From Candidatus Niyogibacteria bacterium RIFCSPLOWO2_12_FULL_41_13 (GTDB lineage: Bacteria > Patescibacteriota > Minisyncoccia > 2-12-FULL-41-13), in the NCBI GenBank assembly GCA_001821615.1, contig MHMS01000025.1:23314-65529 (forward strand): 42,216 nt of DNA, in the 5' to 3' direction. The notes beneath the pieces were generated by a model, which ran no database searches, had not been told where the DNA came from, and worked only from the letters and a program-made list of their open reading frames with translations. The position numbers were made by a program, and so were the translations under genes. This document shows positions 63 to 36,305 of the stretch, in pieces. How positions within the stretch are numbered: position 1 is the first letter of the stretch; the number at the start of each line of letters is the position of its first letter.

Positions 63-185
63 ACCCCGTTAGAAGCCGCGGACGCCTTCCATTATTATCC
101 ACAAATTTATAATTGGACAAAAGAAGGAAATTCATTGTATTATAAGCTTAAAATCGCTAAGTCCGCGTCTTGCTTCTAACGGGGT
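63..185. mobile_element. MITE-like hairpin element, ACCCCGTTAGAAGC-type terminal inverted repeats
   Basis: Perfect 14-bp TIR accccgttagaagc (63-76) / gcttctaacggggt (172-185), extended by cgcggac/gtccgcg. The same TIR occurs at 20441-20554. No coding capacity. Confidence 0.75.
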
Positions 186-212
186 TGACAAAGTTTGATA
201 TTTTGCTAAATT
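185..212 (+). promoter_or_regulatory. Putative sigma70 promoter of rpoBC
   Basis: TTGACA at 185-190, 16-nt spacer, TG-c-TAAATT ending at 212; about 135 nt upstream of the rpoB ATG. Confidence 0.55.
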
Positions 213-347
213 AAATACAATATTTCGTGTTAAGCTTTTCTTCTTCAGCAACTCAAAATTAAATAGGTTTTAGGGTCGTTTAAGGCCCCTAGCGCAAACA
301 GGGGGAGGGATTTTTATGTTTTAAATTTAAACATCATTTTTTAAACA

Positions 348-3300
348 ATGGCATCAAAGCTTCCCAAAAAATATTTTACAAAATTTAAAAAACCGCTCGT
401 TGACCTCCCGAATCTGATTGAATTCCAAAAAGATTCATTTAAGTGGTTTCGCGAAAAGGGTTTAAAAGAGCTTTTTGAAGACATTTCGCCGATTAAGGAT
501 TTCACGGAGAAAGAACTGGAACTCCATTTCATTGATTATAGCATCGGCGAGCCGAATTACGACGACCAATACGCGAAAGACCACAATCTTTCTTACGAGG
601 CTCCGTTAAAAACGCGTTTTTCCCTCGTTAATAAAAGAACGAAGGAAAAAAAAGAGCAGGAGGTTTTTTTCGGAAATATTTTTTTAATGACCGAACGGGG
701 AACTTTCGTCATAAACGGCGTTGAGCGAGTCTTGATTTCCCAATTGGCCAGGTCATTCGGCGTTTATTTCAATTCCGTTTTTTACCGCGGCAAAAATTAT
801 TTCGGCGCCAAAATCATCCCCAGCCGCGGCTCCTGGATTGAAATCCAGACAGAACCAAACGGCGTCATCTACGCCCGAATAGACCGCAAAAGAAAATTTC
901 TCGTCACTTCTCTTTTGCGGTTTTTTAATTTGGAAAAAGACCAGGATATTAAAGAATGCTTTAAGGAGCGCGATAGAGGGGAGATAAAATTTATTGACGA
1001 AACAATCAAAGAAGACCCGGCGAAAAGCCAGAGCGAAGGGATTGCGGAAATGTATTCAAAAATAAGGCCGGGCGAGCCGGCGAGCCCCGAAGCGGCGAAA
1101 GAATTCATCTCAAAAATGTTTTCCAAAGAGCGTTACGACCTTTCATTGGCGGGAAGACACCGCTTAAATCGCCGGCTTGGTCTTCCTCTTGAGGGCATTG
1201 AAAAAATGCCGAGAAACCTGAATTTAGAAGATTTAAAAGCCGTTGTCGCAAAAATAATTGAGCTTAATAATAATCCCGAAGCCGTTCCCGACGATATTGA
1301 CCATCTTGGCAACCGGCGGGTCAGGGGAGTGGGAGAAATGTTTCAGCAGAGATTAAGAATCGCAATGATAAAAATACGGGCGATTATTCAGGACAGAATG
1401 GCGGCTTTGGAAAAAGAAGGGCTTGCTCCGCTTCAGCTTGTGAATCCGAGGCCGTTTATTATAGCAATGAGGGAATTTTTTTTGACGGGCCAGCTTTCCC
1501 AATTTATGAGCCAGGAAAATATTCTTTCGGAGGTGGAGCATTTAAGGCGACTTTCCGCTTTGGGTCCGGGGGGATTAAGCAGGGAAAGAGCCGGCATTGA
1601 AGCGAGAGACGTTCATTCTTCCCATTATAACCGAATTTGCCCGATTCAGACTCCCGAAGGCCAGAATGTCGGCTTGGTTGTGAATTTGGCGATTTTTGCC
1701 CGAGTCAACGAGTTCGGCATTTTGGAAACGCCTTATTTGAAAGTTGACAAGGGAAGAATAACTTCCGAAGTAAAATATCTTGACGCTTTTGAAGAGGAAA
1801 ATTACAGCATTGCCGCCGCTTCAACAAAATACGACGAAAAAGGAAAAATTTTAGAGGAATTGATTGAATCAAGAGTCAAAGGCAAACCAGCGGTGATTCA
1901 CAAGGACGAAATTGATTTTATTGATGTTTCTCCCCAGCAGGCTTTTTCCATTTCAACGAGTTTGATTCCGTTTCTTGAGCATGACGACGCGAGCCGGGCG
2001 CTGATGGGAGCGAATATGCAACGTCAGGCGATTCCCTGTTTGAGGCCGGAAGCTCCGTTGGTCGCGACCGGTCTTGAGGAAAAAGCGGCGCTTGATTCCG
2101 GCCGGCTCGTCAGGGCTCCGGAAGAAGGGGTGATTAAATACGCCGACGCCCAAAAAATAATTTTTCAATCAAAGAAAGAAGAAAAAATTTACAATCTTTT
2201 GAATTTTCATCGTTCAAACGATTTTACGCTTGTTCATCAGCGCCCGATAGTGTCTCCCGGGCAAAAAGTAAATAAAGGAGATGTTTTAAACGATTGCGCT
2301 TCAACGCAAAACGGAGAATTGGCGCTCGGCAAAAATGTTTTTGTCGCGTTTTTGTCTTTGGCCGGCTCAACCTACGAAGACTCCATCGTTATTTCCGAAA
2401 AACTGGTTCGCGCCGACACTTACACTTCCGTTCATATTGAAGACCATATTTGCGACGTAAGGGAGACAAAGTTGGGACCGGAAATCACCACTTACGACAT
2501 TCCCAATGTAAGCGAAGAACGGCTGAAAAATCTTGACGAAGACGGAATAGTGCGGATAGGAGCGGAAGTAAGGGCCAACGATATTTTGGTCGGCAAATTA
2601 AGTCCGAAAGGGGAGATTGAACTGACTCCGGAAGAAAAACTTTTGCGGGCTATTTTCGGAGAAAAGGCGAAACAATTCAAAGACACGTCTTACCGTTTGC
2701 CTCACGGAAAAGAGGGAAGGGTGATTGGAATAAAAATTTTTTCCTGGGACAAGGGCGACAAGCTTGAGCCGGGCATAACCAAAAGAATTCAAATAGAAGT
2801 CGCCCAGTTGAGAAAATTGGAAATCGGAGACAAAATTTCCGGCCGGCACGGCAACAAGGGCGTTGTTTCAAAAATTCTTAAGGAGGAAGATATGCCGTTT
2901 CTGGAAGACGGCCGGCCGATTGACATCGTTTTAAATCCTTTGGGCGTGATTTCAAGAATGAATCTGGGGCAGATTCTTGAAACGCACCTTGGTTTGGCCG
3001 CCAAAACTTTGAATTATCAGGCGATAAGCCCGATTTTTCAAGGCGTTTCAGAAGAGGAAATCAAAGAAGAGCTTTTGAAAGCCGGTTATCCTTCTTCCGG
3101 CCAGCTTAAGATTTATGACGGCAGAACGGGCGAATTGATTGAAAACAATGTTACGGTCGGCCATATTTATATGCTCAAGCTTAAACATATGGTGACTGAA
3201 AAAATACATATGAGGTCTATCGGCCCTTATTCCTTGATTACTCAACAGCCCCTCGGCGGAAAGGCGCAAATGGGAGGCCAGAGATTCGGGGAAATGGAAG

Positions 3301-3512
3301 TTTGGGCTTTGGAAGCTTACGGCGCCGCCCACACTCTTCAGGAAATGCTTACGGTTAAATCAGACGATGTGGCTGGCAGGATTGCCGTCCACGAAGCGAT
3401 TATTAGAGGAGAAAAATTCAAAAATCCGAGCCTTCCCGCTTCTTTTAATGTTCTGCTTAACGAATTAAAGGGTTTGTCTTTGGATGTAAAGCTTATTAAG
3501 AAAGACATTTGA
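348..3512 (+). CDS. rpoB: DNA-directed RNA polymerase subunit beta
   Basis: 1054 aa; motifs [64 protein letters not shown]. Confidence 0.99.
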
Positions 3513-3531
3513 CATTTGACAAATAACAAAT
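3504..3531 (+). repeat. Degenerate heptamer tandem (gacattt)2-gacaaat-aacaaat at the rpoB/rpoC junction
   Basis: Read directly; it contains the rpoB stop codon. Confidence 0.6.
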
Positions 3532-3533
3532 AT

Positions 3534-6500: not shown

Positions 6501-7145
6501 CTGGCGATTAAAGGAAAAAAGAAAGAAGACATAAAGGAATATGTCGTTCCCGCAAAAAAAGTCATATTGGTTAAAAAGGGCGACAAAGTGAAACCCGGAG
6601 ACAGATTATCAGTCGGCATTGTCAATGTAAAACATCTTTTTAAACTTGCCGGCCGCGAGGAAACCCAGAGATACATTTTGAACGAAATTGAAAGAATTTA
6701 TCTTTCGCAGGGAGCGCCGATTAACGAGAAACATATTGAAATCATCGTTCGCCAGTTATTTTCTCGGGTGGAAATTTTTGACGAAGGAGAGACTGATTTC
6801 AATAAAGGAGATATAATTGAAGAAGCCGAACTTTTTGAAGAAAACGAAAAAGCGAAAAAACTCGGCAAAAAACAAGCCAAAGGAAAGAAAACGCTTTTGG
6901 GCATTTCCAAAGTCGCCCTTAGTTCCTCCGGATTTCTTTCAGCCGCGTCTTTTCAGGAAACGGCGAAAATTTTCATCAACGCTTCTTTGGCGGGAAAAGA
7001 GGACAAGCTGTTGGGGCTTAAGGAAAACGTGATCATCGGCAAATTGATACCCGCCGGCACCGGCTTCAGAAAAGAAGATATCAAAGAAACCTCGGCGTTA
7101 AGGGAAGAAAAAACAGAATTACAGGAAGCAAGAGAGGAAAGATAA
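3534..7145 (+). CDS. rpoC: DNA-directed RNA polymerase subunit beta'
   Basis: Catalytic NADFDGD, N-terminal Zn finger CFCGKY..CDKC, GKRVDYSGRSVI, SIGEPGTQLTMRTFH. ATG 3534 is preferred over TTG 3516, which lies in the heptamer repeat. Confidence 0.99.
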   Translation: MNEREKLSLLIKLASPEEILSWSRGEVTEPETINYRTQRAEKDGLFDEKIFGPEKDYHCFCGKYRKIRYKGIVCDKCGVEVTKAIVRRERMGHIGLASPVTHIWFLRSVPSRLGLVFNLTLSDLEKIIYFSSFIIIKVHKEAKEELEKELAKEYEKKSKSSVSKQEKESFKQNFDETKKELDLVRPGQILSSAEHHSLSLKYGKIFESGIGAEALYNLAKGIDLEKVKNELEKEIETNLVDQDKIQRRLKLFKSLIRAKIRPEWMFLTVLPVIPPDLRPIVQLDEGRHASADVNDLYRRLINRNNRLKYLLEIGAPEIIVRNEKRMLQEAVDALIDNSMRKTQAAAISKAQKRPLRSLADMLKGKQGRFRKNLLGKRVDYSGRSVIVVGPELKFDECGLPKHMCLEIYRPFVISKLIQKGFAYNIKGANRLIEEGKDEVWEVLEDLIKDSYVLLNRAPTLHRLGIQAFKPILIEGKAIRIHPMVCHGFNADFDGDQMAVHLPLSEESQREAKNLIASVNNLTKPGTGEPIVNPQQDIVLGCYWLTNMIEGGKGEGRAFSDFAEAYAAYEKGIVGLQSKIKVRIKNELKETSLGRIIFNQVFPDSFGFINQQVSQKTLSDIVKNIITHYGKETAAEILDKIKTLGFRYATLSGISFSMDDVKVPKEKPEIIEKAKQEAEKIEENYKKELLSFHERFDLLIELWQEASQKINSLVSSSLDPSGSIHFMVNSGARGKWPQVFQMAGLKGLVTNPAGRVIELPAIASYKEGLKVLEYFISTHGARKGTADTALKTAVAGYLTRKLVDAAQSVVVVEKDCGDTEGFLVRRAESENYGRKIKERIFGRFLAKDLADQKGKILFKKGHLISFDDAETIDNSGVGELVIRSPLTCKTQRGVCQTCYGYELGRNILIDLGEAVGIVAAQSIGEPGTQLTMRTFHFGGVASKEDITLGLPQIIEIFETQLPSNPAVVAEEEGEIYDIQENEREIIIKIKLAIKGKKKEDIKEYVVPAKKVILVKKGDKVKPGDRLSVGIVNVKHLFKLAGREETQRYILNEIERIYLSQGAPINEKHIEIIVRQLFSRVEIFDEGETDFNKGDIIEEAELFEENEKAKKLGKKQAKGKKTLLGISKVALSSSGFLSAASFQETAKIFINASLAGKEDKLLGLKENVIIGKLIPAGTGFRKEDIKETSALREEKTELQEAREER

Positions 7146-7158
7146 TTTATTCCGCCAT

Positions 7159-7997: not shown

Positions 7998-8069
7998 TGG
8001 GCGTGCTAGGGATCGAACCTAGGACCTGTTGTTTATAAGACAACCGCTCTGCCACTGAGCTACACGCCC
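7998..8069 (-). tRNA. tRNA-Ile(UAU)
   Basis: Minus strand GGGCGTGTAGCTCAGTGGCAGAGCGGTTGTCTTATAAACAACAGGTCCTAGGTTCGATCCCTAGCACGCCCA: 7-bp acceptor stem, GCTC/GAGC D stem, GTTGT/ACAAC anticodon stem with loop CT-TAT-AA, GTTCGA T arm, A73. CCA is not encoded. Confidence 0.95.
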
Positions 8070-18905: not shown

Positions 18906-20174
18906 ATGGGAAATAAAATTAAGAAATTAATTTTTAAAGAAGAAAAACGCCAGCGCGAAACTTTAAACTTAATTGCTTCGGAAAATTATATACCCAAAAA
19001 CATCAGGGATGTTTTGTCTTCGCGTTTGAGCAACAAATATTCCGAAGGTTATCCGGGGAAGCGCTATTACGCCGGCAATGAATATATTGATGAAATTGAA
19101 AAATTGGCGCGGAAAAACGCTTTGGAATTATTCGGCTTAAAAGAAGCGGAATGGAGTGTTAATGTTCAGCCGTTGTCCGGCACGCCGGCAAATTTGGCGG
19201 TTTATTTTGCTTTAGTTCCGCTGAACGGCAAAATAATGGCTCAATGTTTGGATTGCGGAGGACATCTTTCGCACGGTTCCCCCCTAAGTATTACGAGCAA
19301 GTTATGGAAATGGGTGCATTATACTCTTGATAAAAAAACGCAAAAACTTGATTACAACGCGATTTTATCATTAGCCAAAAAAGAAAAGCCGAAACTTATT
19401 GTCGCCGGCGTTTCCGCTTATTCAAGAATTATTGATTTTAAAAAAATAGGCAAAATCGCCGAGAAAATCGGCGCTTATTTAATGGTTGATATGTCTCATA
19501 TCGCCGGACTTGTCGCCGGAAAAGTTTATCCAAGTCCGTTTCCCTGCGCCGATGTCGTTACTACCACCACTCATAAAACATTAAGAGGACCGAGAGGAGC
19601 GATAATTTTCGCAAATCGCAAATCGCAAATCGCAAAACGCGCAGACATAAATATCGTGAATCTTATTGACAAAGCGGTTTTTCCGGGATTGCAAGGGGGA
19701 CCGCATAATCAGCAGACTGCGGCAATCGCCTTATGTTTGGAAGAAGCGAAAAAACCGGCATTTAAAAAATACGCAAAACAAGTGGTTAAAAACGCGAAAA
19801 CATTGGCCGAAGAATTGCGGAAAAAAGATTTTAAAATAGTTTCCGGCGGAACAGATAGTCATCTGTTTTTGATTGATTTAATTTTTTCCGGCCTGGAATT
19901 CGGAGGAAAACAAGCGCAGGAGCGGTTGGAAAAAGGCGGTATTATTTTGAATATGAACATAATTCCGTTTGATGAAAAAAAAGCTCGCGATCCGTCGGGC
20001 ATTAGAATCGGAACGCCGGCAATTACATCAAGAGGAATGAAAGAAAAAGAAATGAAAACAATTGCCGGCTGGATTTCGGAAATTTTAAAATCGCCGGAAA
20101 CAGATTTGCCGATAGTTCAGAGGCGAATCAAAAAAGAAGTTGAAAAACTTTGCCGCGCTTTTCCAATATTATGA
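18906..20174 (+). CDS. glyA: Serine hydroxymethyltransferase
   Basis: LIASENY, KYSEGYPGKRYY, TTTTHKTLRGPRG (PLP lysine), FPGLQGGPH, SGIRIGTPAITSRG. Confidence 0.98.
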   Translation: MGNKIKKLIFKEEKRQRETLNLIASENYIPKNIRDVLSSRLSNKYSEGYPGKRYYAGNEYIDEIEKLARKNALELFGLKEAEWSVNVQPLSGTPANLAVYFALVPLNGKIMAQCLDCGGHLSHGSPLSITSKLWKWVHYTLDKKTQKLDYNAILSLAKKEKPKLIVAGVSAYSRIIDFKKIGKIAEKIGAYLMVDMSHIAGLVAGKVYPSPFPCADVVTTTTHKTLRGPRGAIIFANRKSQIAKRADINIVNLIDKAVFPGLQGGPHNQQTAAIALCLEEAKKPAFKKYAKQVVKNAKTLAEELRKKDFKIVSGGTDSHLFLIDLIFSGLEFGGKQAQERLEKGGIILNMNIIPFDEKKARDPSGIRIGTPAITSRGMKEKEMKTIAGWISEILKSPETDLPIVQRRIKKEVEKLCRAFPIL

Positions 20175-20440
20175 TAGCCAAGAAAATTCGGGTTTTCGGA
20201 CGGGTTCAGGGAATATTTTTTCGCCATTCCTCAAAAATAAAAGCCAATGAATTGGGGATTCGGGGCTACGCGCAAAACCGGGAAGACGGCTCGGTTGAAA
20301 TTTTTGTTCAGGGAGAAGATGAGGCGATTGAAAATTTCGTCGCTTGGGCAAGAAAAGGTCCGGATTCAGCCGAAGTAAAAGACATAAAAATTGAAACGAT
20401 TGAGTCCGAAAAAAAATTTAACGATTTTTACATTTTATGA
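20171..20440 (+). CDS. acyP: Acylphosphatase
   Basis: GRVQGIFFR, GYAQNREDGSVE, GP..AEV; ATGA overlap with the glyA stop. Confidence 0.93.
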   Translation: MIAKKIRVFGRVQGIFFRHSSKIKANELGIRGYAQNREDGSVEIFVQGEDEAIENFVAWARKGPDSAEVKDIKIETIESEKKFNDFYIL

Positions 20441-20554
20441 ACCCCGTTAGAAGCTCAAAATTAGGTCATTATTATAACAAGACTCAAGGCGAAGCCGCCT
20501 ATCGGCTATTATTATGATTTTTAAAGAGAACAATCTTAAAGCTTCTAACGGGGT
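20441..20554. mobile_element. MITE-like element (ACCCCGTTAGAAGC TIR) inserted at a start codon
   Basis: 15-bp TIR accccgttagaagct/agcttctaacggggt flanked by GA..GA; removing it restores ATG AAA TTA CTT ATT (MKLLIITQK) overlapping the acyP stop. Confidence 0.8.
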
Positions 20555-21596
20555 GAAATTACTTATTATTACTCAGAAAGTTGATGTCAACGACGATATT
20601 TTGGGATTTTTTCACGGCTGGCTGGAAAAATTCGCGAAGAAATTCAGCAAATTGACGGTGATTTGTTTGGAAAAAGGGGAGTATGTTTTGCCGCAAAACG
20701 TTGAAGTTTTGTCATTGGGCAAAGAAGCCGGAAAATCGCGGCTGAAATATATTTTTAGATTTTATAAATATATCTTTAAATATCGGGACGACTACGATGC
20801 GGTTTTTGTGCATATGAATCCGGAGTATGTTGTTTTGGGAGGATTATTTTGGAAGATAATGAGAAAAAAAATTCTGCTTTGGTATAACCATACTTACGGC
20901 GGTTTATTTGCCAAGCTCGGAATTATTTTTGCCGATATGGTTCTCCATACTTCTCCTTACGCTTTTTCGGCAAACACCAAAAAATCCGTCAGGATGCCGG
21001 CGGGAATTGACACTGAAATTTTCAAAAAAAATCCAGCCGCGGAAAAACTCAAAAATTCCATCTTGTACATCGGAAGATTCTCGCCGGTTAAAAATATTCA
21101 TATTCTTATTGAAGCGGCAAAAATTTTGGACAAGCAAAATTTAGATTTTTCCGTCTATTTATACGGCAAGCCGCCTGCAACGCATATCGGGTATTTCAAG
21201 CTGATTAAAGAATCCGCCCGGGAACTTGAGAAAAAAGGAAAATTATTTTTTAACGAGAGCGCGCCGAATTTTAAAACGCCGGAAATATACAATAAACACA
21301 TTGTTTCAGTTAATCTGACGCCGAGTGGAAACTATGACAAAACCGTTCTTGAATCAATGGCTTGCGAGACATTGGTTCTTGTTTCCAGCAAAGCGTTTGA
21401 GGACGCTTTGCCAAAAGAATTTATATTTAAAGAAAACGATGCGGATGATTTGGCCAAAAAACTTCAATCAGTGTTTAAATTGCCCGAAGACGAAAGAATT
21501 TTATTCGGTCAAAATTTTCGCCGTTATATAATTGAAAATCACAACCTCAATCTTTTGGCGGAGAAAATTTCCTCTGCAGTGGCTGTTCCCATTTAA
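20553..21596 (+). CDS. Glycosyltransferase family 4
   Basis: KLLIITQKVD, YIGRFSPVKN, YDKTVLESMAC (GT4 pattern). Probable start is GTG 20553 in the TIR; alternative ATG 20514 lies inside the element. Confidence 0.9.
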   Translation: MKLLIITQKVDVNDDILGFFHGWLEKFAKKFSKLTVICLEKGEYVLPQNVEVLSLGKEAGKSRLKYIFRFYKYIFKYRDDYDAVFVHMNPEYVVLGGLFWKIMRKKILLWYNHTYGGLFAKLGIIFADMVLHTSPYAFSANTKKSVRMPAGIDTEIFKKNPAAEKLKNSILYIGRFSPVKNIHILIEAAKILDKQNLDFSVYLYGKPPATHIGYFKLIKESARELEKKGKLFFNESAPNFKTPEIYNKHIVSVNLTPSGNYDKTVLESMACETLVLVSSKAFEDALPKEFIFKENDADDLAKKLQSVFKLPEDERILFGQNFRRYIIENHNLNLLAEKISSAVAVPI

Positions 21597-29411: not shown

Positions 29412-29461
29412 CACAAGAGAATTATACAAGAAATTTATAATCATCGGCAAATGTGGATATT

Positions 29462-29592
29462 TTAATATCAGGCGTTGAATCTTAACAAGAGTTTGTCTCG
29501 GACATTCTCTCGGATAAATGTCTAAGACAAATGTCTAAGACAATGTCTGAGACAATGTCTGAAACTATTGAGGTTGAACCTCAATAGTTTGA
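29462..29592. repeat. 131-bp direct repeat B, copy 1 (array of TGTCTnAGACA-like palindromes plus a GAGGTTnAACCTC hairpin)
   Basis: Aligns without gaps to 30165-30295 with 9 mismatches by my count; hairpin aaactattgaggtt-g-aacctcaatagttt at 29562-29590. Confidence 0.95.
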
Positions 29593-29676
29593 GTGGTTTG
29601 TGTTCGTTCAACGCTGAGCCAAACACTTTATCAAAAATGACAAACCCAACATCGAAGATAAAAAGTGGAATAAGTA

Positions 29677-30027
29677 TCATAATTTTCTTTTAGAGGTCTT
29701 TATAGTTATCAGAGCGGCTATTACAACCACAGCAACAAAAATTAAAATTGACACAGTTCCGACTTTCATAGTTGAATCATTTAGCACTTGGTCTTGGTTG
29801 GTTTGCTGAGACTTTAGCGCTTCAATTTCTGATTTTAGTTCGTTATTCTCTTGATACAATTTTGAACTAGATTGCTGTTGTTGAAGAATCTGATTTTGCT
29901 GTTTCAAAAAATAAGCTTGCCTACACGACTGAAATGCTACTGGGTCAGAAGAACGACACCCAGTTTCTAAATCTGTTTGCCATCGTGGGGAGAAATTTAC
30001 GAAATCTCGTTTTTTTATTTCCTCCAT
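29677..30027 (-). CDS. Small Q-rich coiled-coil protein with C-terminal TM anchor
   Basis: 116-aa ORF, C-x10-C pair, LYQENNELKSEIEALK coiled coil, hydrophobic tail followed by KTSKRKL. Confidence 0.7.
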   Translation of the reverse strand: MEEIKKRDFVNFSPRWQTDLETGCRSSDPVAFQSCRQAYFLKQQNQILQQQQSSSKLYQENNELKSEIEALKSQQTNQDQVLNDSTMKVGTVSILIFVAVVVIAALITIKTSKRKL

Positions 30028-30047
30028 ATTGATAGTTTGGTTAATTG

Positions 30048-30076
30048 AGACTATCGAGGTTCAACCTCAATAGTTT
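30048..30076. repeat. REP-like palindrome (GAGGTTnAACCTC core)
   Basis: agactatcgaggtt-c-aacctcaatagttt. Confidence 0.85.
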
Positions 30077-30136
30077 GAATTTTTTGTAAATTGGTTTCAT
30101 AGACCTAATTATAAAAAATATAAAAGGAATAAACAA

Positions 30137-30167
30137 TAATCTGCGGAGGTTTAACCTCCGCAGATTA
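30137..30167. repeat. REP-like perfect palindrome (GAGGTTnAACCTC core, different arms)
   Basis: taatctgcggaggtt-t-aacctccgcagatta, 15-bp perfect arms. Confidence 0.9.
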
Positions 30168-30295
30168 ATGTCAGGCGTTGAATCTTAATAAGAATTTGTC
30201 TCGGACATTCTCTTGGACAAATGTCTAAGATAAATGTCTAAGACAATGTCTAAGACAATGTTTGAAACTATTGAGGTTTAACCTCAATAGTTTGA
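30165..30295. repeat. 131-bp direct repeat B, copy 2
   Basis: Offset 703 bp from copy 1; hairpin at 30265-30293. Confidence 0.95.
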
Positions 30296-30300
30296 TTAAT

Positions 30301-30334
30301 AAAATAAAAACAGGGGCGATAATTGGGCGCCCCT
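30301..30334 (-). terminator. Intrinsic terminator of orphan 30335-30748
   Basis: Stem aggggcg/cgcccct directly after the stop, then GTTTTTATTTT on the minus strand. Confidence 0.7.
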
Positions 30335-30748: not shown

Positions 30749-30826
30749 TTTAACCCCTTTCTTTAAAAAGACCTGTTTATTTTCTATCTAAAACTTATCA
30801 AAATCAACAATTTTTGCAAGAATCGG

Positions 30827-30864
30827 CAACTATTCCAATATTCTTAAGAATATTGGAATAGTTG
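30827..30864. repeat. Perfect 38-bp palindrome with no loop
   Basis: caactattccaatattctt|aagaatattggaatagttg. Confidence 0.95.
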
Positions 30865-30942
30865 TTTTCAAAAATATTTTTTTTGTGATAATGTTAGGTT
30901 GGATTTGTATTTGCGGAATTTGCCGGAAAGGAGGTTCTATAG

Positions 30943-31308
30943 ATGCGTCCCAAAGAATTATTAGGCGTTCCTTTTATTTTATCAGAAGAAATTTTTTCTT
31001 TATTCCTGGATTCTTTGGACGGATTTAGGGAAAAAGGGAATTTCCACTTGTGTCCGTTTTGCCAAGAAAATACCATGATTAAAATCCATGAGATTCATCC
31101 ATTTTATCGATGTCCGATTGGCCATCCTGAATTGAAATTATTTTTCCCCGGAACGATAGAATTAAGAAAAAAACATGAAGGGTTGGGATTTTTTTGTTTC
31201 TGCTATTATTCAACCAAGGAAGAATTTCTTGAATTGATGGAAAAAGAGCGTTCCGGCGATTTTAAATATCAGTCAAACGCTCACTATATTTGCCTTGACA
31301 AGATTTAA
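30943..31308 (+). CDS. Small Cys/His-rich, putative zinc-binding protein (121 aa)
   Basis: SD GAAAGGAGG; CPFC ... CPIGH ... CFC ... HYIC. Confidence 0.7.
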   Translation: MRPKELLGVPFILSEEIFSLFLDSLDGFREKGNFHLCPFCQENTMIKIHEIHPFYRCPIGHPELKLFFPGTIELRKKHEGLGFFCFCYYSTKEEFLELMEKERSGDFKYQSNAHYICLDKI

Positions 31309-31330
31309 ATCAAATCAAGGCGTTTTTTTT
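31292..31330 (+). terminator. Intrinsic terminator
   Basis: gccttga...tcaaggc followed by g and T8. Confidence 0.55.
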
Positions 31331-31376
31331 GCAAAAAAACAGGGAAGTTTTTTGCTTCTTTAATTTAGAAAATAAT

Positions 31377-32246
31377 TCAACGGAATAATTTTTTGAGTTC
31401 CAATAATAGCGGGGCGGCTAAAAAAATTGACGAATAGGTGCCCAACACTATTCCCAAAACCAAAGTCAAAACAAAAAATTTAATCGTTTCTCCGCCAAGG
31501 ATGATAATCGGAGTTATTACCAAGAGCGTGCCCATGCCGGTGTTGAGCGACCTTATATAGGTTTGTCTTAAACTTTCCCCGATGATATTTGAAAATTCTT
31601 CCCTGCTGGATTTCATCAGATTTTCTCTAATTCTGTCAAAAATGATGATTCGGTCGTTGATTGAGTAGCCGATAACCGCGAGAATGGCGGCGATAAAAGG
31701 AAGCCCCACTTCAACTTGATGATACCTTCCAAGATAAGCGAATACTCCCAAGACAACAATGATGTCAAAAATTAGAGTGATGATTGTGATAAAACCATAA
31801 CTCCAGGAAGTGAAAATATAAGAAATCTGGCGAAAAGCGATTGCCATATAGATAATCATCAAGACAAGAGAAATTATTATCGCAAGCGCCGCTTTGTTTT
31901 TAAGCTCTTTTCCGATGACCGGGCCGATTGAATCAAATCTTAGTTCTTCTTTCGGGTTTAAATTTTTGACGATTTCTTCGTGGGCGTTCTGGTCAATGTC
32001 CTTGAAGCGAAGAATATAAGTCGCGTTTTCGCTTTTTTTGATTTCAACTTCCCCCAAATTGAAATTTTTTAACTTTTCCCGGATTTCGTTTTCTTGGATT
32101 TCTGAATCAAATTTAATTTCCATTAAACTGCCTCCGGTAAAATCTATCGCCGGACGCACGCCGTAGTTTATAAAGAAAAACAAGGCGGCGATAAAGGTAA
32201 GGCCGGAAAAGATGTAAAATATTTTTCTGTAATTGACCACAAACAT
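31377..32246 (-). CDS. secF: Protein translocase subunit SecF
   Basis: IDFTGGS, SIGPVIGKEL, IGYSINDRIIIFDRIRE, GTYSSIFLA. Confidence 0.97.
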   Translation of the reverse strand: MFVVNYRKIFYIFSGLTFIAALFFFINYGVRPAIDFTGGSLMEIKFDSEIQENEIREKLKNFNLGEVEIKKSENATYILRFKDIDQNAHEEIVKNLNPKEELRFDSIGPVIGKELKNKAALAIIISLVLMIIYMAIAFRQISYIFTSWSYGFITIITLIFDIIVVLGVFAYLGRYHQVEVGLPFIAAILAVIGYSINDRIIIFDRIRENLMKSSREEFSNIIGESLRQTYIRSLNTGMGTLLVITPIIILGGETIKFFVLTLVLGIVLGTYSSIFLAAPLLLELKKLFR

Positions 32247-32250
32247 AATT

Positions 32251-33546
32251 TTATCTGTTTAAAGCGCGAAGATAAATTTTCGTAAGCCAGACCCCGCTTA
32301 ACATGCTCGTTGCCACCCCGATTATTAAAGTCAAGGCAAATCCCTTAATGGCGCTTGTGCCAAGCCAAAACAGCACTATCCCGATAAAAATGGTTGTAAG
32401 GTTGCTGTCAAAAATAGCGTTCCACGCCCGTTTGAATCCGTCTTCAACCGCGATTGTTTTTGTTTTGCCGGCCTTTAATTCTTCTTTGGTTCTTTCAAAA
32501 ATCAAAACATTAGCGTCAAGGGCCATTCCCAAAGACATTAAAAATCCAATCAATCCGGCAAGCGTCAGAGTGACGGGAATGAGTTTAAAGAGCAAAAGCG
32601 TGAAGCCGAAATAAAATAAAAGCGCGAAGAGAGCGATTAATCCGAGGAGCCGGTAGTATGCCAGGAAATACAAAGATAAAAGCGAAAGGCCGATTAATCC
32701 CGCTTTAATTGAATCATTGATTGAATCTTGGCCGAGCGTCGGTCCAACCCTTTCTTGACTTACGAGTTTTATTGGAATCGGAAGGGCGCCGGAATTTAGC
32801 CGTTGGACGAGAAGTTTAGCTTCTTTTGGCGTGAATTTTCCCGTAATTTGGGCTTTGCCGCCGATTATTTCTTCGCGCACAACCGGAACGCTTATTGGAA
32901 CTCCATCCAGATAAATCGCAACCGGTTTTCCGACATTTTCTTTTGTTATTTTTGCGAAAATTTCCTTGCCGGTTTCGTCAAATTCCAAAGAAATAATCGG
33001 TTCAAAAGTCGTCTCATCAAATTGCAGAGTTGATTTTTTCAAAAATCGGCCGGTTAGCGCCGCGCTTATGAAATACGGGTCTTCGTTTAATCTCTGGTTT
33101 TGTTTTTGCGATTCTAAAATTATTTTTGTTTCTTCTTCGGTTCTTTGGGTTTTGAATTCAAGATAAGGTGTCTCACCGATCATTTTTATCGCTTCGTCAA
33201 TATTATAGACGCCGGCAAGCTCAACAATCAGCCGCCGTTCTTTGTCTTTTTTCTGGACCTGGACAATCGGTTCGCGCACGCCGAACAAATTAACTCTTCT
33301 TTCGATGACATCTCGCAGTCCGCTCATCGCCGAGTCAATTTCTCTTCCTTTTACAACGGATAAATCCGCTTGATAGATCAGATGGCTTCCGCCTTGCAAA
33401 TCAAGCCCGAGTTTGAAAGGAAATTTGGCGAATTTGCCCGCCAAAAATTGGTTTTTTAACAAAAATGGAGAAAGATGAAAATAAAGAAGAAAAACGGTCA
33501 ACAACAGAAAAGCGGCTGATAGAAAATAGTATTTTCTTTTTGGCAT
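32251..33546 (-). CDS. secD: Protein translocase subunit SecD
   Basis: LGLDLQGG, RRVNLFGVREP, SGALPIP, VGPTLG, GMALDANVLIFER; start set to ATG 33546. Confidence 0.97.
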   Translation of the reverse strand: MPKRKYYFLSAAFLLLTVFLLYFHLSPFLLKNQFLAGKFAKFPFKLGLDLQGGSHLIYQADLSVVKGREIDSAMSGLRDVIERRVNLFGVREPIVQVQKKDKERRLIVELAGVYNIDEAIKMIGETPYLEFKTQRTEEETKIILESQKQNQRLNEDPYFISAALTGRFLKKSTLQFDETTFEPIISLEFDETGKEIFAKITKENVGKPVAIYLDGVPISVPVVREEIIGGKAQITGKFTPKEAKLLVQRLNSGALPIPIKLVSQERVGPTLGQDSINDSIKAGLIGLSLLSLYFLAYYRLLGLIALFALLFYFGFTLLLFKLIPVTLTLAGLIGFLMSLGMALDANVLIFERTKEELKAGKTKTIAVEDGFKRAWNAIFDSNLTTIFIGIVLFWLGTSAIKGFALTLIIGVATSMLSGVWLTKIYLRALNR

Positions 33547-33631
33547 AAGGCGAAAAATTGGATATTCGCAATATATCATAAAAACCAAAAAGTTTCAAAA
33601 TTTTCAAGATTTGTGATAAATTATTCAAATC

Positions 33632-34933
33632 GTGATAGCGCGATTTTTGAAGGACAAATTTTTTCAGAACAGTTTTATTTATGTAAGCGGCACTCTTTTT
33701 GCCGGTTCGCTCGGATATCTTTTTCATTTTTTGATTTCCAGAAAGCTTTCAGTGGCGGAATACGGCGAACTTCAGGGTCTTTTGGCTCTTCTGGGCATTG
33801 TCGGAGTCTTTTCTTCGTCTCTTTCTTATTTTGTCATTAAGTATTCGTCGGCTTTCGCGAAGCAAAACGATTTTGGCGCCACCCGGGCGTTCATTGAATG
33901 GGTGAATTCCCAAATTCACAAATTAGTTATCGCTTTTTTGGTTTTGTTCGTTTTAGCAAGCCCGTTTATTCACAATTATCTCAAACTTTCCGATTTTGTC
34001 GGCATCATTGCCGTCGGCTTTGCGATTGTTTTTGGCATTTTAACGACTGTTTACGCCGCCGCTTTCGCCGGCTGGCAGGATTTTTTGCTTGTCAATGTCA
34101 TTGGCGCTTTCGGTTCTCTTTTAAAACTGTTTTTCGGCTTGCTTATCGCGATTTTTTTGGCAAAAGCGTCGTTCGTGATTTTTTCCGTTTTTATCGCCGC
34201 CGCGGGCGGATGGTTTTTGGCGAGGTTTTTCGCTAAAAAAAAATTTTTCAAAGGACCGGCGGAAAAAATTGATTGGAAAGAAAAATATTTTCCGGATTTA
34301 AAAATCAGAGAAATAGTTTTTCCGATTTTTATTTTTTCATTGATGATTGCCTTATTGAGCGACCTTGATGTGCTTCTTGTCAAAAATCTGACCTCGCCGG
34401 AAATTACGGGTTATTTCGGCGCTCTTAAAATTTTAGGAAAAATAATTTTATGGATTAATTTGGCGATTGTGGCCGTGGTTTTACCGGAGGCCTGCGCCGA
34501 AGGACATGCGGGGCAAAATATAAGTTTGAAAAAATTATTAGGCGCTTACGGATTAATTGTTTTTACGAGCGCGTGCGCCACTTTGATTTATTTTTTCTTT
34601 CCGGAATTCACAATCAAGCTTTTCTTTGGAGCCAAATACGCGGTTTTCGGGCCGGACCTGTGGCTCTTCGGAATTATAGCGCTGATTCTTTCTTTATTAA
34701 TGTTTGAGGCGAATATCGCTTACGCCCGCCATGATTTTAAAATTTCTTACATTCTCGGATTTTCAGCCTTACTGATGACAATCTTTATATATTTATTTCA
34801 CGAAACGATTCGCCAGACGGCGCTCGGCATTATTTTCGCGGTTTTTATCGGCTATTTTTTCGCCCTTATTTTGAATTTGATTCACAGAAAAAGAGAAGAA
34901 GTTGACAGATTTGTCGCCCTTGATATTCCGTAA
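33632..34933 (+). CDS. Oligosaccharide flippase (Wzx-like)
   Basis: About 12 TM segments, SRKLSVAEYG, LDVLLVKNL..ITGYF. Confidence 0.88.
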   Translation: MIARFLKDKFFQNSFIYVSGTLFAGSLGYLFHFLISRKLSVAEYGELQGLLALLGIVGVFSSSLSYFVIKYSSAFAKQNDFGATRAFIEWVNSQIHKLVIAFLVLFVLASPFIHNYLKLSDFVGIIAVGFAIVFGILTTVYAAAFAGWQDFLLVNVIGAFGSLLKLFFGLLIAIFLAKASFVIFSVFIAAAGGWFLARFFAKKKFFKGPAEKIDWKEKYFPDLKIREIVFPIFIFSLMIALLSDLDVLLVKNLTSPEITGYFGALKILGKIILWINLAIVAVVLPEACAEGHAGQNISLKKLLGAYGLIVFTSACATLIYFFFPEFTIKLFFGAKYAVFGPDLWLFGIIALILSLLMFEANIAYARHDFKISYILGFSALLMTIFIYLFHETIRQTALGIIFAVFIGYFFALILNLIHRKREEVDRFVALDIP

Positions 34934-34959
34934 ATAAAAGTTTATAAAGTTGTAAAGTT

Positions 34960-35937
34960 ATGGCAAAAGGAAAAAAATTAATTTCCGTGATAATACCGGT
35001 TTATAATGAAGAAAAAAACATTCTTTTGATTTATAACGAGATTAAAAAAGTTTGGGAAAATTTAGCGGAAAATTACGATTACGAGCTGATTTTTGTCAAT
35101 GATTGCAGTCAAGATAAAAGCGGAGAGGAGATAGAAAAAATCGCGGAGGGCGATAAACAAGTGAAGCATTTGGAATTTTCGCGGAATTTCGGAAAAGAAA
35201 TCGCCACTTCGGCCGGATTGCATCACGCGCTTGGCGAGGCGGCGATTATGATTGACGCCGACCTTCAGCATCCCTCGGAATTTATTCCCGAATTCGTTGA
35301 AAAATGGGAAAACGGCGCTCCGGTGGTCGTAGGCATAAGGGAAAAAAATAAAGGAGAAGAATTGTTTAAACGAATCGGCTCGGCGTTGTTTTATAGAATA
35401 ATGAATCTTATCGGCGAAACTCAAATTATTCCCAACGCCACCGATTTCAGATTGCTTGACAGAAAAGTCATTGAAGAATTTAAAAAATTCACGGAAAGAA
35501 ACAGGATTACAAGAGCGCTTGTGGATTGGCTCGGATTTGAAATAGCGCGCGTTTATTTCCGCGCCAACGAAAGAAAATCGGGAAAAGCGGGATACAACTA
35601 TTTAAAATTGATTAAACTCGCGCTTTCGTCTTTTGTTTCCCATAGCTTATTTCCGCTGAAATTAGCCGGCTATCTCGGAATTTTTATTACCGTTTTTTCA
35701 ACATTTCTGGGATTATTTGTTATAATTGAACAAATTATTTTAAAAGACCCTCTTGGCGTAAGGTTTTCCGGCACAGCCATGCTTGCGGTGATGATTTTGT
35801 TTTTAGTCGGCGTTATGTTAAGTTCGCTTGGTTTAATCGCCCTGTATATTGCTCATATTCACGACGAAGTGATTAACCGGCCGATGTATGTCATTAAAAA
35901 TCAAAAATCAAAAATAAAAAATCAAAATTATGATTAA
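34960..35937 (+). CDS. GT2 polyprenol-phosphate glycosyltransferase (GtrB/DPM-like)
   Basis: SVIIPVYNEE, VNDCSQD, SRNFGKE, DADLQHP, DFRLLDR, two C-terminal TM helices, RPMY. Confidence 0.93.
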   Translation: MAKGKKLISVIIPVYNEEKNILLIYNEIKKVWENLAENYDYELIFVNDCSQDKSGEEIEKIAEGDKQVKHLEFSRNFGKEIATSAGLHHALGEAAIMIDADLQHPSEFIPEFVEKWENGAPVVVGIREKNKGEELFKRIGSALFYRIMNLIGETQIIPNATDFRLLDRKVIEEFKKFTERNRITRALVDWLGFEIARVYFRANERKSGKAGYNYLKLIKLALSSFVSHSLFPLKLAGYLGIFITVFSTFLGLFVIIEQIILKDPLGVRFSGTAMLAVMILFLVGVMLSSLGLIALYIAHIHDEVINRPMYVIKNQKSKIKNQNYD

Positions 35938-36157
35938 AATTATTCACAAAAAGAAAGAATGCATCAGTTGCGGAAGTTGCGCCGTTCTTTGTCCGCAATA
36001 CTTTGAAATGGGAGGGGATAATTTCGCGGAATTAAAAGGAAGCAGATTAAACGGCGCGACCGGAAACCAAGAACTCGAAATTTCGGAAAAAACAAAAGAA
36101 CTTGAGGACGCCGCGCAAAGCTGTCCGGTTCAGATTATTATTTTGGAAGAGAAGTGA
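35930..36157 (+). CDS. Single-cluster ferredoxin
   Basis: CISCGSCAVLCP ... AAQSCPVQII. Confidence 0.92.
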   Translation: MIKIIHKKKECISCGSCAVLCPQYFEMGGDNFAELKGSRLNGATGNQELEISEKTKELEDAAQSCPVQIIILEEK

Positions 36158-36164
36158 TTTTTAT

Positions 36165-36305
36165 GCCCAGTAAGACAAAATCAAATGCTAAATCTAATTT
36201 CTTGCCGAGCATAAACATGTATTATTGCCAAATCATATTTAAACATAATAGTCGGATGTTTATTTGCGGATTTAGCAAGAAATATTCGATTTAGTCTTAC
36301 TGGGT
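36165..36305. mobile_element. MITE-like long-hairpin element (GCCCAGTAAGAC TIR) at a start codon
   Basis: gcccagtaagacaaaatc / gatttagtcttactgggt; nested arms tgctaaatc/gatttagca, ataaacat/atgtttat, tattat/ataata; flanked by AT..AT; removal restores ttttATGCCAAAA. Confidence 0.8.

Follow-up and report, generated by a model that had tools for sequence, protein, structure and literature searches.

Small single-domain GIY-YIG nucleases that cut beside cognate hairpin repeats are described as the Ssn family (PMC11893778). For SsnA of Neisseria meningitidis, a single-domain protein of 94 aa, the gene is often flanked by hairpin repeats on both sides, a layout that Chenal et al. 2025 call IS-like in the part of their paper that we draw on (PMC11893778). 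In the window (the whole stretch of 42,216 nucleotides analysed here), we found hairpin repeats that we interpret, with a probability of roughly three in four, as MITEs, gene-less copies descended from two sister lineages of a tiny mobile element bearing a GIY-YIG nuclease. The proposed elements share with Ssn and its NTS/SRM hairpins a single-domain GIY-YIG of about 94 aa, a gene bracketed by inverted-repeat DNA, and many gene-less copies of the bracketing repeat dispersed near genes. However, going by the portion of the Ssn description used here, they differ in that the repeats pair mutually as terminal inverted repeats with 4-bp target duplications, occupy start codons, where they make use of the host's ATG, and are unrelated in sequence to NTS. 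We found no published description of a small GIY-YIG element with inverted ends on start codons.

Other dispersed repeats show part of this anatomy. Correia elements, or NEMIS, of Neisseria are 100-150 bp long, with terminal inverted repeats and duplication of a TA target, and occur in many copies close to genes, with which they are co-transcribed and to which they sometimes supply promoters; to our knowledge, they have no identified parent. In contrast, the present elements duplicate 4 bp, and in their parents a GIY-YIG nuclease takes the place of a DDE transposase. As for REP/BIME repeats and their RAYT (Y1, IS200/IS605-like), dispersed hairpin repeats are tied to a small, repeat-flanked nuclease-type gene, but in this genome the hairpins that flank the two Y1 genes are their own and differ from those described here.

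For mycobacterial interspersed repetitive units (MIRUs), we know of no terminal inverted repeats and no element-encoded enzyme. They insert at start codons with a coupled ORF, according to the sections of a review that we rely on (PMC12548453). The present elements are likewise short, mobile-looking repeats at start codons, with a small ORF that may be coupled to the interrupted gene; in MIRUs, the translational coupling limits harm to expression (PMC12548453). The MIRU spacing of -4 recurs in the type-A gene-bearing copies and one type-B copy (types as defined below), whereas type B stands at +10/+11.

Characterised homing enzymes have extra DNA-binding domains, long specific targets, and homology-driven copying. 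Unlike them, the present protein is a bare domain, and the insertion sites have just 4 bp in common and come with inverted ends and duplications. The likeness to GIY-YIG homing endonucleases (I-TevI, Seg) and to insertions in CPR rRNA genes is that a GIY-YIG is the sole gene of a selfish insertion. In the latter, which are non-intron insertions, the GIY-YIG ORFs lie in sequences unlike either intron class and show no homing-like behaviour, as far as the consulted part of that report goes (PMC11270868).

Repeat ends and elements in the window

The motif RCCCMGTWAGA was matched seven times in the window against 0.04 expected, and 0/100 shuffles reached seven. The genome-wide search that the first-pass annotation had proposed gave 82 matches over 562 kb, against one with the reversed control (genome completeness, 95.7%). 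A better consensus for the ends is CCCMGTWAGA...TCTWACKGGG, with type-A ends reading (C/T)CCCGTTAGA... and type-B ends CCCAGTAAGAC...; the 8/11 identity reported between the two types was right. Re-reading the sequence also confirmed the positions of all four ends: perfect inverted ends of 14 and 15 nt, ACCCCGTTAGAAGC(T), at 63-185 and 20441-20554, 24-nt arms that are 88% complementary at 36165-36305, and the fourth end at 7-17. When folded as single strands, 3/3 window copies presented z-scores from -5.2 to -5.3, and 0/200 shuffles folded equally well. The genome census comprised 41 paired copies and nine solo ends. The interiors had been described as unrelated, which is correct for the two type-A copies of the window (best common word, 9 nt) but not for type B: more than 20 copies across the genome have related interiors, which form a conserved family.

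Table 1. Features of the hairpin elements and their surroundings, in window positions
Feature	Position	Strand	Remarks
Type-B MITE, last 16 nt, its 5' (left) end	1..16	-	Whole copy G000:C25:23209-23329, extends beyond the window
Host gene of type-B copy G000:C25:23209-23329	upstream, outside the window	-	
Target duplication of the type-B copy at 1..16	17..20	-	CATA (TATG on the minus strand)
Type-A element core	64..184	.	121 nt, CCCCGTTAGAAGC...GCTTCTAACGGGG; interior singleton in the genome
Degenerate flanks of core 64..184	60-63 and 185-188		CCGA 60-63, TTGA 185-188
Left target duplication	20438..20441	+	TGAA
Type-A element core	20442..20553	+	112 nt
26-codon frame	20437..20517	+	MNPVRSS..., starts at the host's original ATG
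Right target duplication	20554..20557	+	TGAA
Left target duplication	36162..36165	+	TATG; ATG 36163-36165 opens the element's internal frame
Type-B MITE core	36166..36304	+	139 nt, short subfamily
43-codon frame across the MITE	36163..36294	+	MPSKTKSNAKSNFL...KKYSI
Right target duplication	36305..36308	+	TATG
Epimerase/dehydratase-like gene	36306-37244	+	312 aa, start ATG 36306

The first complete copy is located between divergent promoter-like sites. TGGACA-18-TATTAT is on the + strand within its core, and its right flank is the start of a TTGACA -35-like hexamer. Like other copies whose flanks do not match and whose interior occurs just once, it is probably a rearranged pair of ends.

At the second type-A copy, the original start codon of the host gene is the ATG at 20437-20439, at the left duplication, and the TGA at 20438-20440 doubles as the stop of an upstream frame (20150-20440). 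The downstream gene (20553-21596) has a rebuilt start, GTG at 20553-20555, made up of the element's final G and TG. The TGA ending the 26-codon frame overlaps an internal ATG at 20514 (ATGA); initiation there, in the host gene's frame, would lengthen the host protein by 13 residues. The right 42 nt of the core are common to copy G000:C4:12095 (88%).

The type-B copy has one G-to-A change within an otherwise invariant left arm, and the TAG of its frame (36292-36294) is 11 nt ahead of the host ATG. Homologues of its host protein align from residue 1-4 in 80/80 loci fetched from metagenomes.

Gene-bearing copies in the same genome

Copies enclosing an ORF between matching ends, suggested beforehand as the possible autonomous partners, were found in the same genome. 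The type-B one (C7:2534-2831, 298 nt) has 21-nt arms identical to those of the type-B MITEs and encodes a 96-aa protein with a Pfam GIY-YIG match (E 6.8e-16). The type-A one (C6: about 44078-44362; ends CCCGTTAGAGAT) encodes a 95-aa protein that also matches GIY-YIG (E 1.7e-18). The two nucleases are 45% identical, and profile comparison places UPF0213 proteins and an SLX1 homologue nearest among solved relatives. This single-domain nuclease of about 95 aa is the sole gene of the full-length elements. Its frame opens at the host gene's own ATG, in the left copy of the duplication, and closes within the right repeat, with the stop 10-11 nt ahead of the rebuilt start codon in type B and overlapping the rebuilt start (ATGA) in type A.

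Target duplications and insertion events

The target duplications, taken for 2 bp in the first-pass annotation, are really 4 bp, and the outermost base of the supposed inverted repeat is part of them. The base adjoining CCC tracks the duplication, being A where this is TNNA and G where it is TATG or CGAG, and is therefore target, not repeat. Exact 4-bp flanks were present in 32/41 paired copies: 21/25 of type B (20 of them TATG), 10/15 of type A, and the single copy of a third type (1/1). The type-A duplication is TNNA, often TGAA out of an ATGAA start, and that of type B is TATG. Among the three complete copies of the window, all of which had been credited with duplications, two have them (TGAA and TATG) and the first shows degenerate CCGA/TTGA.

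One type-B copy contains a nested element of the third type with CTAA/CTAA flanks; other type-B copies are uninterrupted there, which provides a paralogous empty site. Besides, a single TATG is common to neighbours in some tandem copies. Target duplications, nested insertions, and tandem copies show that insertions took place. Together with the paralogous empty site and the ORF-bearing copies, they support the proposal that the window copies are non-autonomous elements mobilised in trans, with the nuclease as the putative mover. In the comparison with other genomes, 40/40 "relatives" belonged to other families, and the best metagenome match of the neighbouring gene was 77% identical.

Placement on start codons and possible mechanism

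The elements had been described as all lying at gene 5' ends. This is true in the window and, genome-wide, for type B (25/25 in sense orientation, of which 19 coincide exactly with the start codon and the other 6 are 13-66 nt upstream), but not for type A (6/15). By a crude ORF census, the genome has 236 TATG sites at starts, 564 intergenic, and 2317 genic. In 22/25 type-B copies, an open frame runs from the left junction and either comes as close as 11 nt or less to the right ATG or overlaps it; a 3-nt indel sets the two type-B subfamilies apart, and a 92-codon frame stays open despite a nested 144-nt insert. In aligned type-B copies (n=19), there is a single substitution in the left 29 nt and none in roughly the last 37 nt, with 41 unique substitutions in the middle. 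Substitutions created 0 stops, against just 1.2 and 0.7 expected, too few for power. In several start-codon type-A copies, the frame stops after 6-8 codons.

We propose that the nuclease, expressed from the promoter and initiation signals of the host, would recognise the folded ends and mobilise both full elements and MITEs. Ribosomes crossing the element may melt the hairpin and then pass to the host gene by termination-reinitiation, and insertions on essential genes could be tolerated because of this hand-on. In the part of the MIRU review considered here, translational coupling is insensitive to spacings from -4 to +25 nt (PMC12548453). The left ATG is missing from two type-B copies (TAT|CCCAG), two carry a frameshift (143 nt, early stops), and one is on a TAAT site without ATG, so coupling cannot be obligatory. 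As read from sequence, movement by the GIY-YIG nuclease gives no account of how the 4-bp duplication is made, and we know of no strand transfer by GIY-YIG enzymes.

Invariant ends with drifting middles would also suit a domesticated Ssn-like system, where ssDNA cutting at dispersed hairpins modulates recombination or transformation and the repeats are host features, not active transposons. The size and flanking hairpins of SsnA agree with this, as does a short type-A fold conserved over five genomes of different families. We consider it improbable, since the duplications, nested insertions, and tandem copies attest insertion, the repeats pair across the element instead of forming a self-contained hairpin per side, and they are unlike the published NTS consensus; moreover, start-codon siting with a through-frame is what a parasite would require for its host to tolerate it and does not amount to an obvious host function. 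Nevertheless, the Ssn-like and mobile-element readings are not mutually exclusive.

Conserved fold of short type-A copies

A Y-shaped fold with covariation is common to the short type-A copies, and its covarying inner hairpins are unexplained by a plain MITE model. They are one argument for structured host cis-regulatory RNA or DNA hairpins controlling the neighbouring genes, the second alternative of the first-pass annotation, in which the terminal stem alone is constrained. Location at start codons and promoters, strong folds, and, in some type-A copies, hexamers resembling promoters or in-frame ATGs directed towards the host gene point the same way. However, no Rfam family matches the elements, the host genes are mutually unrelated, and target duplications as well as a nuclease gene are found in the copies. 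Of the short type-A copies, five in number, three are oriented sense and two antisense to local genes. No clear strand bias is apparent among G-T pairs (9 cells) or A-C mismatches (5 cells). Host regulation is thus very unlikely in our view and not needed for the data, although the short type-A structure is conserved beyond the terminal stem.

Distribution in other genomes

Relatives of the type-B nuclease occur at 515 loci, of which 80 were fetched and 63/80 were parsable; the parsed loci repeat the anatomy described above, which thereby extends to dozens of other genomes. Exact 4-bp duplications flank 47/63 parsed loci (42 of them TATG), a frame of at least 80 codons runs from the right-junction start codon in 59/63, and the nuclease frame is intact in 57/63. 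Its stop is 10 nt ahead of the host ATG in 28 loci and 9 nt in 8. Type-A nuclease relatives (L205, L207, L209, and L210) have ends TCCCGTTAGAGA. The starts on which they are inserted read ATGAA, ATGAG, or ATGGA, and the duplications are TGAA, TGAG, or TGGA. Among 401 same-class genomes, four matched the spaced end pattern, and two of the matches were gene-bearing: in G286, a GIY-YIG gene lies between type-A ends, and in G277 such a copy is broken by a MITE. In ultra-small (Patescibacteria-type) bacteria, the usual insertion site of the full-length elements is precisely the start codon of a gene.

MITE load corresponds only loosely to the presence of a nuclease: in G008, type-A ends number 76, yet the sole GIY-YIG match is a distant one (40% identical). 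G008 would fit inverted-repeat elements moved in trans by another enzyme, with the GIY-YIG as a passenger or selfish nuclease inside some copies, and so would the two Y1_Tnp (IS200/RAYT-like) proteins that the genome analysed here encodes outside the window, of a class acting on DNA hairpins. GIY-YIG enzymes are not known to be transposases. Against this, both Y1 genes have unrelated flanking hairpins of their own, and no type-A or type-B end adjoins either gene; IS200/IS605-type elements produce no target duplication that we know of, unlike 32/41 copies here. The first-pass annotation saw no transposase in the window, and searches of the whole 95.7% complete genome for rve, DDE_Tnp_1, DDE_3, and DDE_Tnp_4 gave no match. 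Furthermore, the nuclease is the sole gene between the ends in the 63 parsed loci of other genomes, the repeats themselves encode its first codons and stop codon, and two nuclease clades match the two end types. A different mover is therefore unlikely, and we favour MITEs derived from the nuclease-bearing elements.

A start-codon arrangement of the same kind is present in an unrelated MITE of a Kerfeldbacteria MAG, with a 43-codon frame whose stop is 10 nt ahead of the host ATG.

Copies in the window and in the genome

We re-read the window and confirmed the three complete elements and the fourth end that the first-pass annotation had placed at 63-185, 20441-20554, 36165-36305, and 1-21. The ends are perfect inverted repeats of 14 nt in the first element and 15 nt in the second, and they form 24-nt arms with 88% complementarity in the third. 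The motif RCCCMGTWAGA occurs seven times in the window (0.04 expected from shuffling), and single-strand folding of each of the three copies gave z-scores of -5.2 to -5.3 (200 shuffles). The dispersed family postulated from these few copies is present too: the motif was found 82 times in the 562-kb, 26-contig genome, against once for the reversed control.

Scanning the genome with the cores CCCNGTNAGA...TCTNACNGGG, we retrieved 41 paired copies and nine solo ends, several of the latter at contig ends. Of the paired copies, 25 belong to type B (CCCAGTAAGA), 15 to type A (CCCCGTTAGA), and one to a third type (CCCCGTCAGA). The 4-nt flanks on the two sides of the cores match in 32 of the 41: duplications were exact in 21/25 type B copies (20 TATG, one TAAT), in 10/15 type A copies (TGAA/TTCA, TAAA/TTTA, TCAA, CGAG), and also in the third-type copy. 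The base previously counted as the first of the repeat is A with TNNA, and G or T with TATG and CGAG. Since it varies with the duplication, this base next to the core belongs to the target, and the target duplication that had been read as 2 bp is 4 bp long. In G008, a genome from a different family of this class, 15 of 20 fetched type A copies had exact 4-bp TNNA duplications.

Insertion events took place. The third-type element is flanked by CTAA/CTAA, and other type B copies are uninterrupted at that site, which provides a paralogous comparison of filled and empty sites. With its 4-bp duplication, it leaves the frame of the surrounding type B MITE open (92 codons). Moreover, two tandem type B copies share a single TATG. 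Testing for the hallmarks of MITEs, we found inverted repeats, a fixed-length duplication, small multi-copy members without an enzyme gene, and a longer gene-bearing relative with the same ends. The gene-less copies are 61-143 nt long, with sole frames of 43-48 codons. From these sequences, we infer that the window elements are bacterial MITEs, which a nuclease encoded by longer relatives would mobilize in trans.

The interiors had been described as unrelated. This held for the two type A copies of the window: the interior of 64-184 is single-copy in the genome, and the right 42 nt of 20442-20553 were found again, with 88% identity, in one other copy. However, the type B interior has more than 20 relatives in the genome. 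The search for orthologous empty sites, which yielded none, covered the 40 nearest genomes, all of which are in other families, and a metagenome scan with the neighboring epimerase returned nothing above 77% identity. One of the 80 epimerase loci fetched contained an inverted pair of end motifs (by regular expression), which by its coordinates lies inside the coding region. These searches have no bearing on recent mobility.

Coordinates of the elements, genes, and repeats discussed. G000 is the genome that holds the window and G277 another genome of the same class; C-numbers are contigs, and the window lies on C25 of G000
Feature	Location	Length	Description
Type A copy	window 64-184		Flanks unmatched; between divergent promoter-like sites
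Type A copy	window 20442-20553		On an ATGA(A/C) start
Type B copy	window 36166-36304		Upstream of epimerase-like gene
Type B partner	G000:C7:2534-2831	298 nt	Same 21-nt arms and TATG flanks as type B MITEs
Derivative of type B partner	G000:C16	232 nt	In-frame deletion derivative of the C7 copy
Type A partner	G000:C6:about 44078-44362		95-codon GIY-YIG frame (E 1.7e-18) between CCCGTTAGAGAT and ATCTCTAACGGG
Third-type element	G000:C13:3294-3433	140 nt	End CCCCGTCAGACAAAATG, intermediate between A and B; nested in type B MITE
Type B left-end remnant	G000:C6:47323-47346	19 nt	Complete type B copy immediately upstream
Type A end pair	G000:C16:6643-6752		Flanks unmatched; encloses complete tRNA-Ala(CGC) gene at 6661-6731
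Third small GIY-YIG gene	G000:C23:15592-15792		Adjoins tRNA gene
Type A cluster (L107)	G277:C7:55333-58554	3 kb	Nested and tandem type A elements
Y1_Tnp frame (RAYT/IS200-like)	G000:C25:2510-3196		228-241 aa (both frames)
Y1_Tnp frame (RAYT/IS200-like)	G000:C14:34306-35031
Tandem repeat blocks	window 29520-29595 and 30205-30295		12-13-nt units, 4-5 units
Small frame	window 29677-30027		Minus strand
Palindrome	window 30133-30171

GIY-YIG nucleases between the same ends

Copies enclosing a gene, which the first-pass annotation had foreseen as autonomous partners, are present for both end types, each with an intact GIY-YIG frame. In the type B partner, a 96-codon frame runs from the left ATG to the same TAG as in the MITEs, and the protein matches Pfam PF01541 with an E-value of 6.8e-16. 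In the type A partner, the frame starts at the ATG of the duplicated start region of the downstream gene, and its TGA stop overlaps the rebuilt ATG. The ends of this copy are those of short type A MITEs on C8 and C25, and counting the terminal T/A pair its 4-bp duplication is TGAG.

The two nucleases (95-96 aa, one domain over residues 10-80) are 45% identical to each other and score 58.8 and 67.1 bits against PF01541 (cut-off 22.6). The GIY-YIG catalytic motif includes the Tyr of GIY and that of YIG, plus Arg, His/Tyr, and Glu; Y14, Y25, G27, R35, E38, H39, E59, R70, and Y73 are invariant in 26 aligned sequences, and any catalytic role of these residues is putative. The nearest solved proteins in a PDB profile search were the UPF0213 proteins 1zg2 and 1ywl and the SLX1 homologue 7wme.

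The elements are common. A word-index protein search returned 170 clusters at E up to 1e-5, most of about 100 aa, and the clusters with names were called GIY-YIG nuclease. Relatives of the type B nuclease are encoded at 515 loci in one-genome-per-species collections, and small GIY-YIG genes occur in 34 of 41 genomes of the class, up to eight per genome. Among 26 aligned relatives, 16 start with MP(S/R)... (mostly MPSNTTS), which is the translated left repeat, and one starts with MNPV..., as a type A end would give.

We fetched 80 of the 515 loci and parsed both ends in 63; the 17 dropped by the parser comprised 11 without a left end by regular expression, five with weak arms, and one without a right end. 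In the 63 parsed loci, the nuclease was the only gene between the ends, with an intact frame in 57. Duplications were exact over 4 bp in 47 (42 of them TATG), the left flank ended in ATG in 56, and a downstream frame of at least 80 codons began at the junction in 59. The nuclease stop lay 10 nt before the host ATG in 28 loci and 9 nt before it in eight. In these loci the stop is a TGA, which sits in a 3-nt unpaired patch of the arms (read from the sequences).

Relatives of the type A nuclease are encoded at 13 loci. In those that could be read, the ends are TCCCGTTAGAGA and the insertion falls on an ATGAA, ATGAG, or ATGGA start, the duplicated bases being TGAA, TGAG, or TGGA. A pattern search for type A ends 266-296 nt apart gave matches in 4 of 401 genomes in this class. 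The match in G286 is a complete GIY-YIG element, which has its own TGnTATAAT-like box and a stop codon in the right repeat; in another (G277), the GIY-YIG gene is split by a nested type A MITE. Across genomes, the association of type A ends with a close type A nuclease is only loose.

Regarding other enzymes, we searched four DDE families and one Y1 family. No DDE transposase was found in the genome with the four Pfam families, and we rejected enzymes of these families as movers. Two Y1_Tnp genes are present, each with its own perfect hairpin on either side, in a REP/RAYT-like layout, and one hairpin core occurs five times in the genome. These hairpins differ from the type A and type B ends, neither gene is adjacent to such ends, and the sharing of the same repeats that marks a REP/RAYT system was not found, which rules out RAYT/Y1 enzymes as the partner.

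The nuclease probably moves both the full elements and the MITEs, a reading to which we assign a probability of about 0.6 on sequence grounds. It is favored because no other gene lies between the ends in the parsed loci, because the repeats themselves encode the first and last codons of the nuclease, and because two enzyme clades pair with the two end types. The nuclease would recognize the folded ends; this is expected because its nearest relatives include structure-specific Slx1-type and hairpin-dependent Ssn nucleases.

The third small GIY-YIG gene of the genome lacks type A or type B ends and has a 16-bp direct repeat of the tRNA 5' end on either side. A locus labeled Saccharibacteria (L003) presents a similar GIY-YIG layout between tRNA-like repeats, and both genes may belong to a tRNA-targeting branch of the same nuclease family.

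Type B insertion at start codons

We oriented the type B copies by the asymmetric TATG. All 25 have one internal orientation, and in each case the gene that follows lies in the sense direction. Gene calls were crude ORF calls, and N-terminal identifications apart from the epimerase were made by reading the sequences. In 19 copies, the downstream frame begins at the right-hand ATG, and the remaining six lie 13-66 nt upstream of a frame start. Sixteen of the 19 downstream frames are 160-499 codons long. The three further cases are a short frame (45 codons) resembling ribosomal protein L34, the galU gene, and a copy in which only ATG is duplicated. For the window epimerase, the homologues in 80/80 fetched metagenome loci align from residue 1-4, and therefore 36306 is the true start.

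In the genome (crude ORFs), TATG occurs 236 times at frame starts, 564 times between genes, and 2317 times within genes. Equal tolerance of every non-genic TATG would place about 7 of 25 copies on starts, against the 19 observed. Targeting of the open complex of leaderless promoters was considered for type B and rejected. A -10-like hexamer (TANNNT, 3-9 nt upstream) was found at 7/19 sites vs. 134/400 ATG-started frames of the genome, and Shine-Dalgarno-like motifs (4-18 nt upstream) at 1/19 vs. 49/400, with no enrichment. Translation initiation in this genome may be largely Shine-Dalgarno-independent or leaderless.

Most type B copies carry a frame through to the host gene. In 21/25 copies, a 43-44-codon frame (MPSKTKSN...KKYSI) runs from the left junction and closes with a TAG, 11 nt short of the host ATG; of these copies, 18 begin with ATG, two lack the G of the left ATG, and one is on TAAT. 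With the galU copy, which has a 48-codon frame ending in an ATGA overlap, 22/25 copies keep a frame open to between -4 and +11 nt of the host ATG. Frameshifts lead to early stops in two copies of 143 nt. The long and short type B subfamilies differ by a 3-nt indel, and the sole arm mismatch (A opposite A) creates the TAG in the right arm, as read from the sequences.

Alignment of 19 type B MITEs showed a single substitution, that of the window copy, in the left 29 nt, none in roughly the final 37 nt, and 25 + 16 unique ones in the middle. Stop codons were absent among the MITE substitutions (0 seen, 1.16 and 0.69 expected), a difference with too little power to indicate avoidance.

Start-codon insertion would lend the element the transcription and initiation signals of its host gene. 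Ribosomes translating the element frame would melt the hairpin and initiate again on the host codon, either 10-11 nt further on or in the ATGA overlap. We consider this account of gained signals and reinitiation rather probable. Translational coupling has been reported over spacings of -4 to +25 nt, in the review PMC12548453. Coupling is not strictly required, since some copies lack the left ATG or have early stops.

On C6, the 19-nt remnant of a type B left end runs straight into the start codon of a ribosomal-protein-S16-like frame.

Type A copies and their short folded form

Whereas the claimed preference for gene 5' ends stood for type B genome-wide, it did not for type A, which is heterogeneous. 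Six of the 15 copies are on ATGA(A/C) start codons, with a right junction GGGG|TGA... that gives a GTG start in the host frame. Of the others, some immediately follow stop codons (TAAA duplications) and the rest are at other intergenic positions. The window copy 20442-20553, one of the six, holds a 26-codon frame from the original ATG; its TGA stop overlaps an internal ATG in frame with the host gene, and the same is seen in two sibling copies.

The right flank of the other window copy, TTGA, is the start of a TTGACA hexamer, and this copy appears to be a rearranged or composite pair of ends. Directly behind the type A end pair around tRNA-Ala(CGC) on C16 comes the 3' half of a second tRNA. 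We rejected an insertion of this pair into a tRNA gene, as its in-silico removal at 64 junction offsets restored no tRNA, and it too is probably a rearranged or composite pair of ends.

The shortest type A copies (59-73 nt) have a common Y-shaped fold: the terminal stem leads into AAG and a first hairpin, then (C)TG and a second one beginning with CCG. In 11 copies from five genomes, 95.1% of the cells pair, vs. 78.3% in shuffles (0/500 as high) and 33-48% with the partners slid, and 17/28 pairs present compensatory changes; the 11 were picked by eye from 15 candidates, leaving out L199-L202 as misfits, so these numbers lean towards structure. Of the five short type A copies in the genome, three are sense and two antisense to local genes, and the G-T and A-C cells display no clear strand bias. 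The mixed orientation together with the lack of strand bias favors a fold that matters in DNA, or on both strands, over a one-strand RNA. At the gathering threshold, Rfam 15 identified only a tRNA (7998-8069) in the window, and at E up to 1 its sole match among 14 short type A loci was a chance-level miRNA.

TCAA/TTGA duplications of type A usually lie within GTCAA/TTGAC, and the right flank is often -35-like (TTGACA). We saw this setting at window 185-190 and at ten fetched loci (L006, L007, L008, L009, L010, L016, L020, L105, L107, L108); it could reflect a target preference or promoter creation. L107 is also a hot spot of self-insertion.

Relation to known systems

The closest described system is Ssn/NTS. 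The single-domain GIY-YIG nuclease SsnA has 94 aa (PMC11893778), and its own hairpin repeats lie on both sides of its gene, a layout noted there as IS-like. Our nucleases are likewise single-domain proteins, of 95-96 aa vs. about 94 aa for SsnA. Unlike in Ssn, the flanks here are the two arms of one long inverted repeat rather than separate, self-contained SRM/NTS hairpins, and the repeats have no likeness to the NTS consensus as quoted. The Ssn family is cd10448; our likening to it is by size and layout, and the nearest PDB profiles are UPF0213 and SLX1.

MIRUs are not known to have inverted ends. The elements resemble them in start-codon insertion with an internal ORF, putatively coupled to the host gene (MIRU definition from PMC12548453). 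Some insertions in CPR rRNA genes hold GIY-YIG ORFs and resemble neither intron class, according to PMC11270868. In the openly accessible main texts searched, we found no description of inverted-repeat, duplication-making GIY-YIG elements or of their MITEs at start codons.

What is new here is the presence of two sister lineages with cognate nucleases in one genome, their different duplication registers (TATG vs. TGNN/TNNA), the stop codon written into an arm mismatch, the covarying Y fold of the short type A copies, and the ruling out of Y1 genes as partners. If the nuclease really moves the elements, this would be transposition by an enzyme class not known for it, in an element barely longer than its own 95-codon gene.

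More tentatively, and with somewhat less than even odds, the elements may represent a new class of prokaryotic DNA transposon which, at ~280-320 bp, would be the smallest autonomous one. Its sole element-encoded enzyme would be a bare Slx1/UPF0213-like GIY-YIG domain (~95 aa) that recognizes folded ends (hairpin, Y, cruciform) and not a duplex site. Such an element could do without its own promoter, ribosome-binding site, and initiation codon, since it would capture the host ATG in its 4-bp duplication and return the ribosome to the host gene.

Core genes in the smallest known bacterial genomes carry such elements on their start codons. Annotation is affected, through false N-terminal extensions, upstream ORFs, and GTG starts, as is the understanding of host-gene expression. 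The pairs of nuclease and folded ends are possible sequence- or structure-specific DNA tools, as proposed for the Ssn enzymes.

Other repeats in the window

The window also contains unrelated repeats. Two blocks of tandem AATGTCTAAGACA-like units bracket the small minus-strand frame and the palindrome listed in the table. Each block is followed by the same perfect hairpin (GAAACTATTGAGGTT...AACCTCAATAGTTT), the core of which occurs seven times in the genome.
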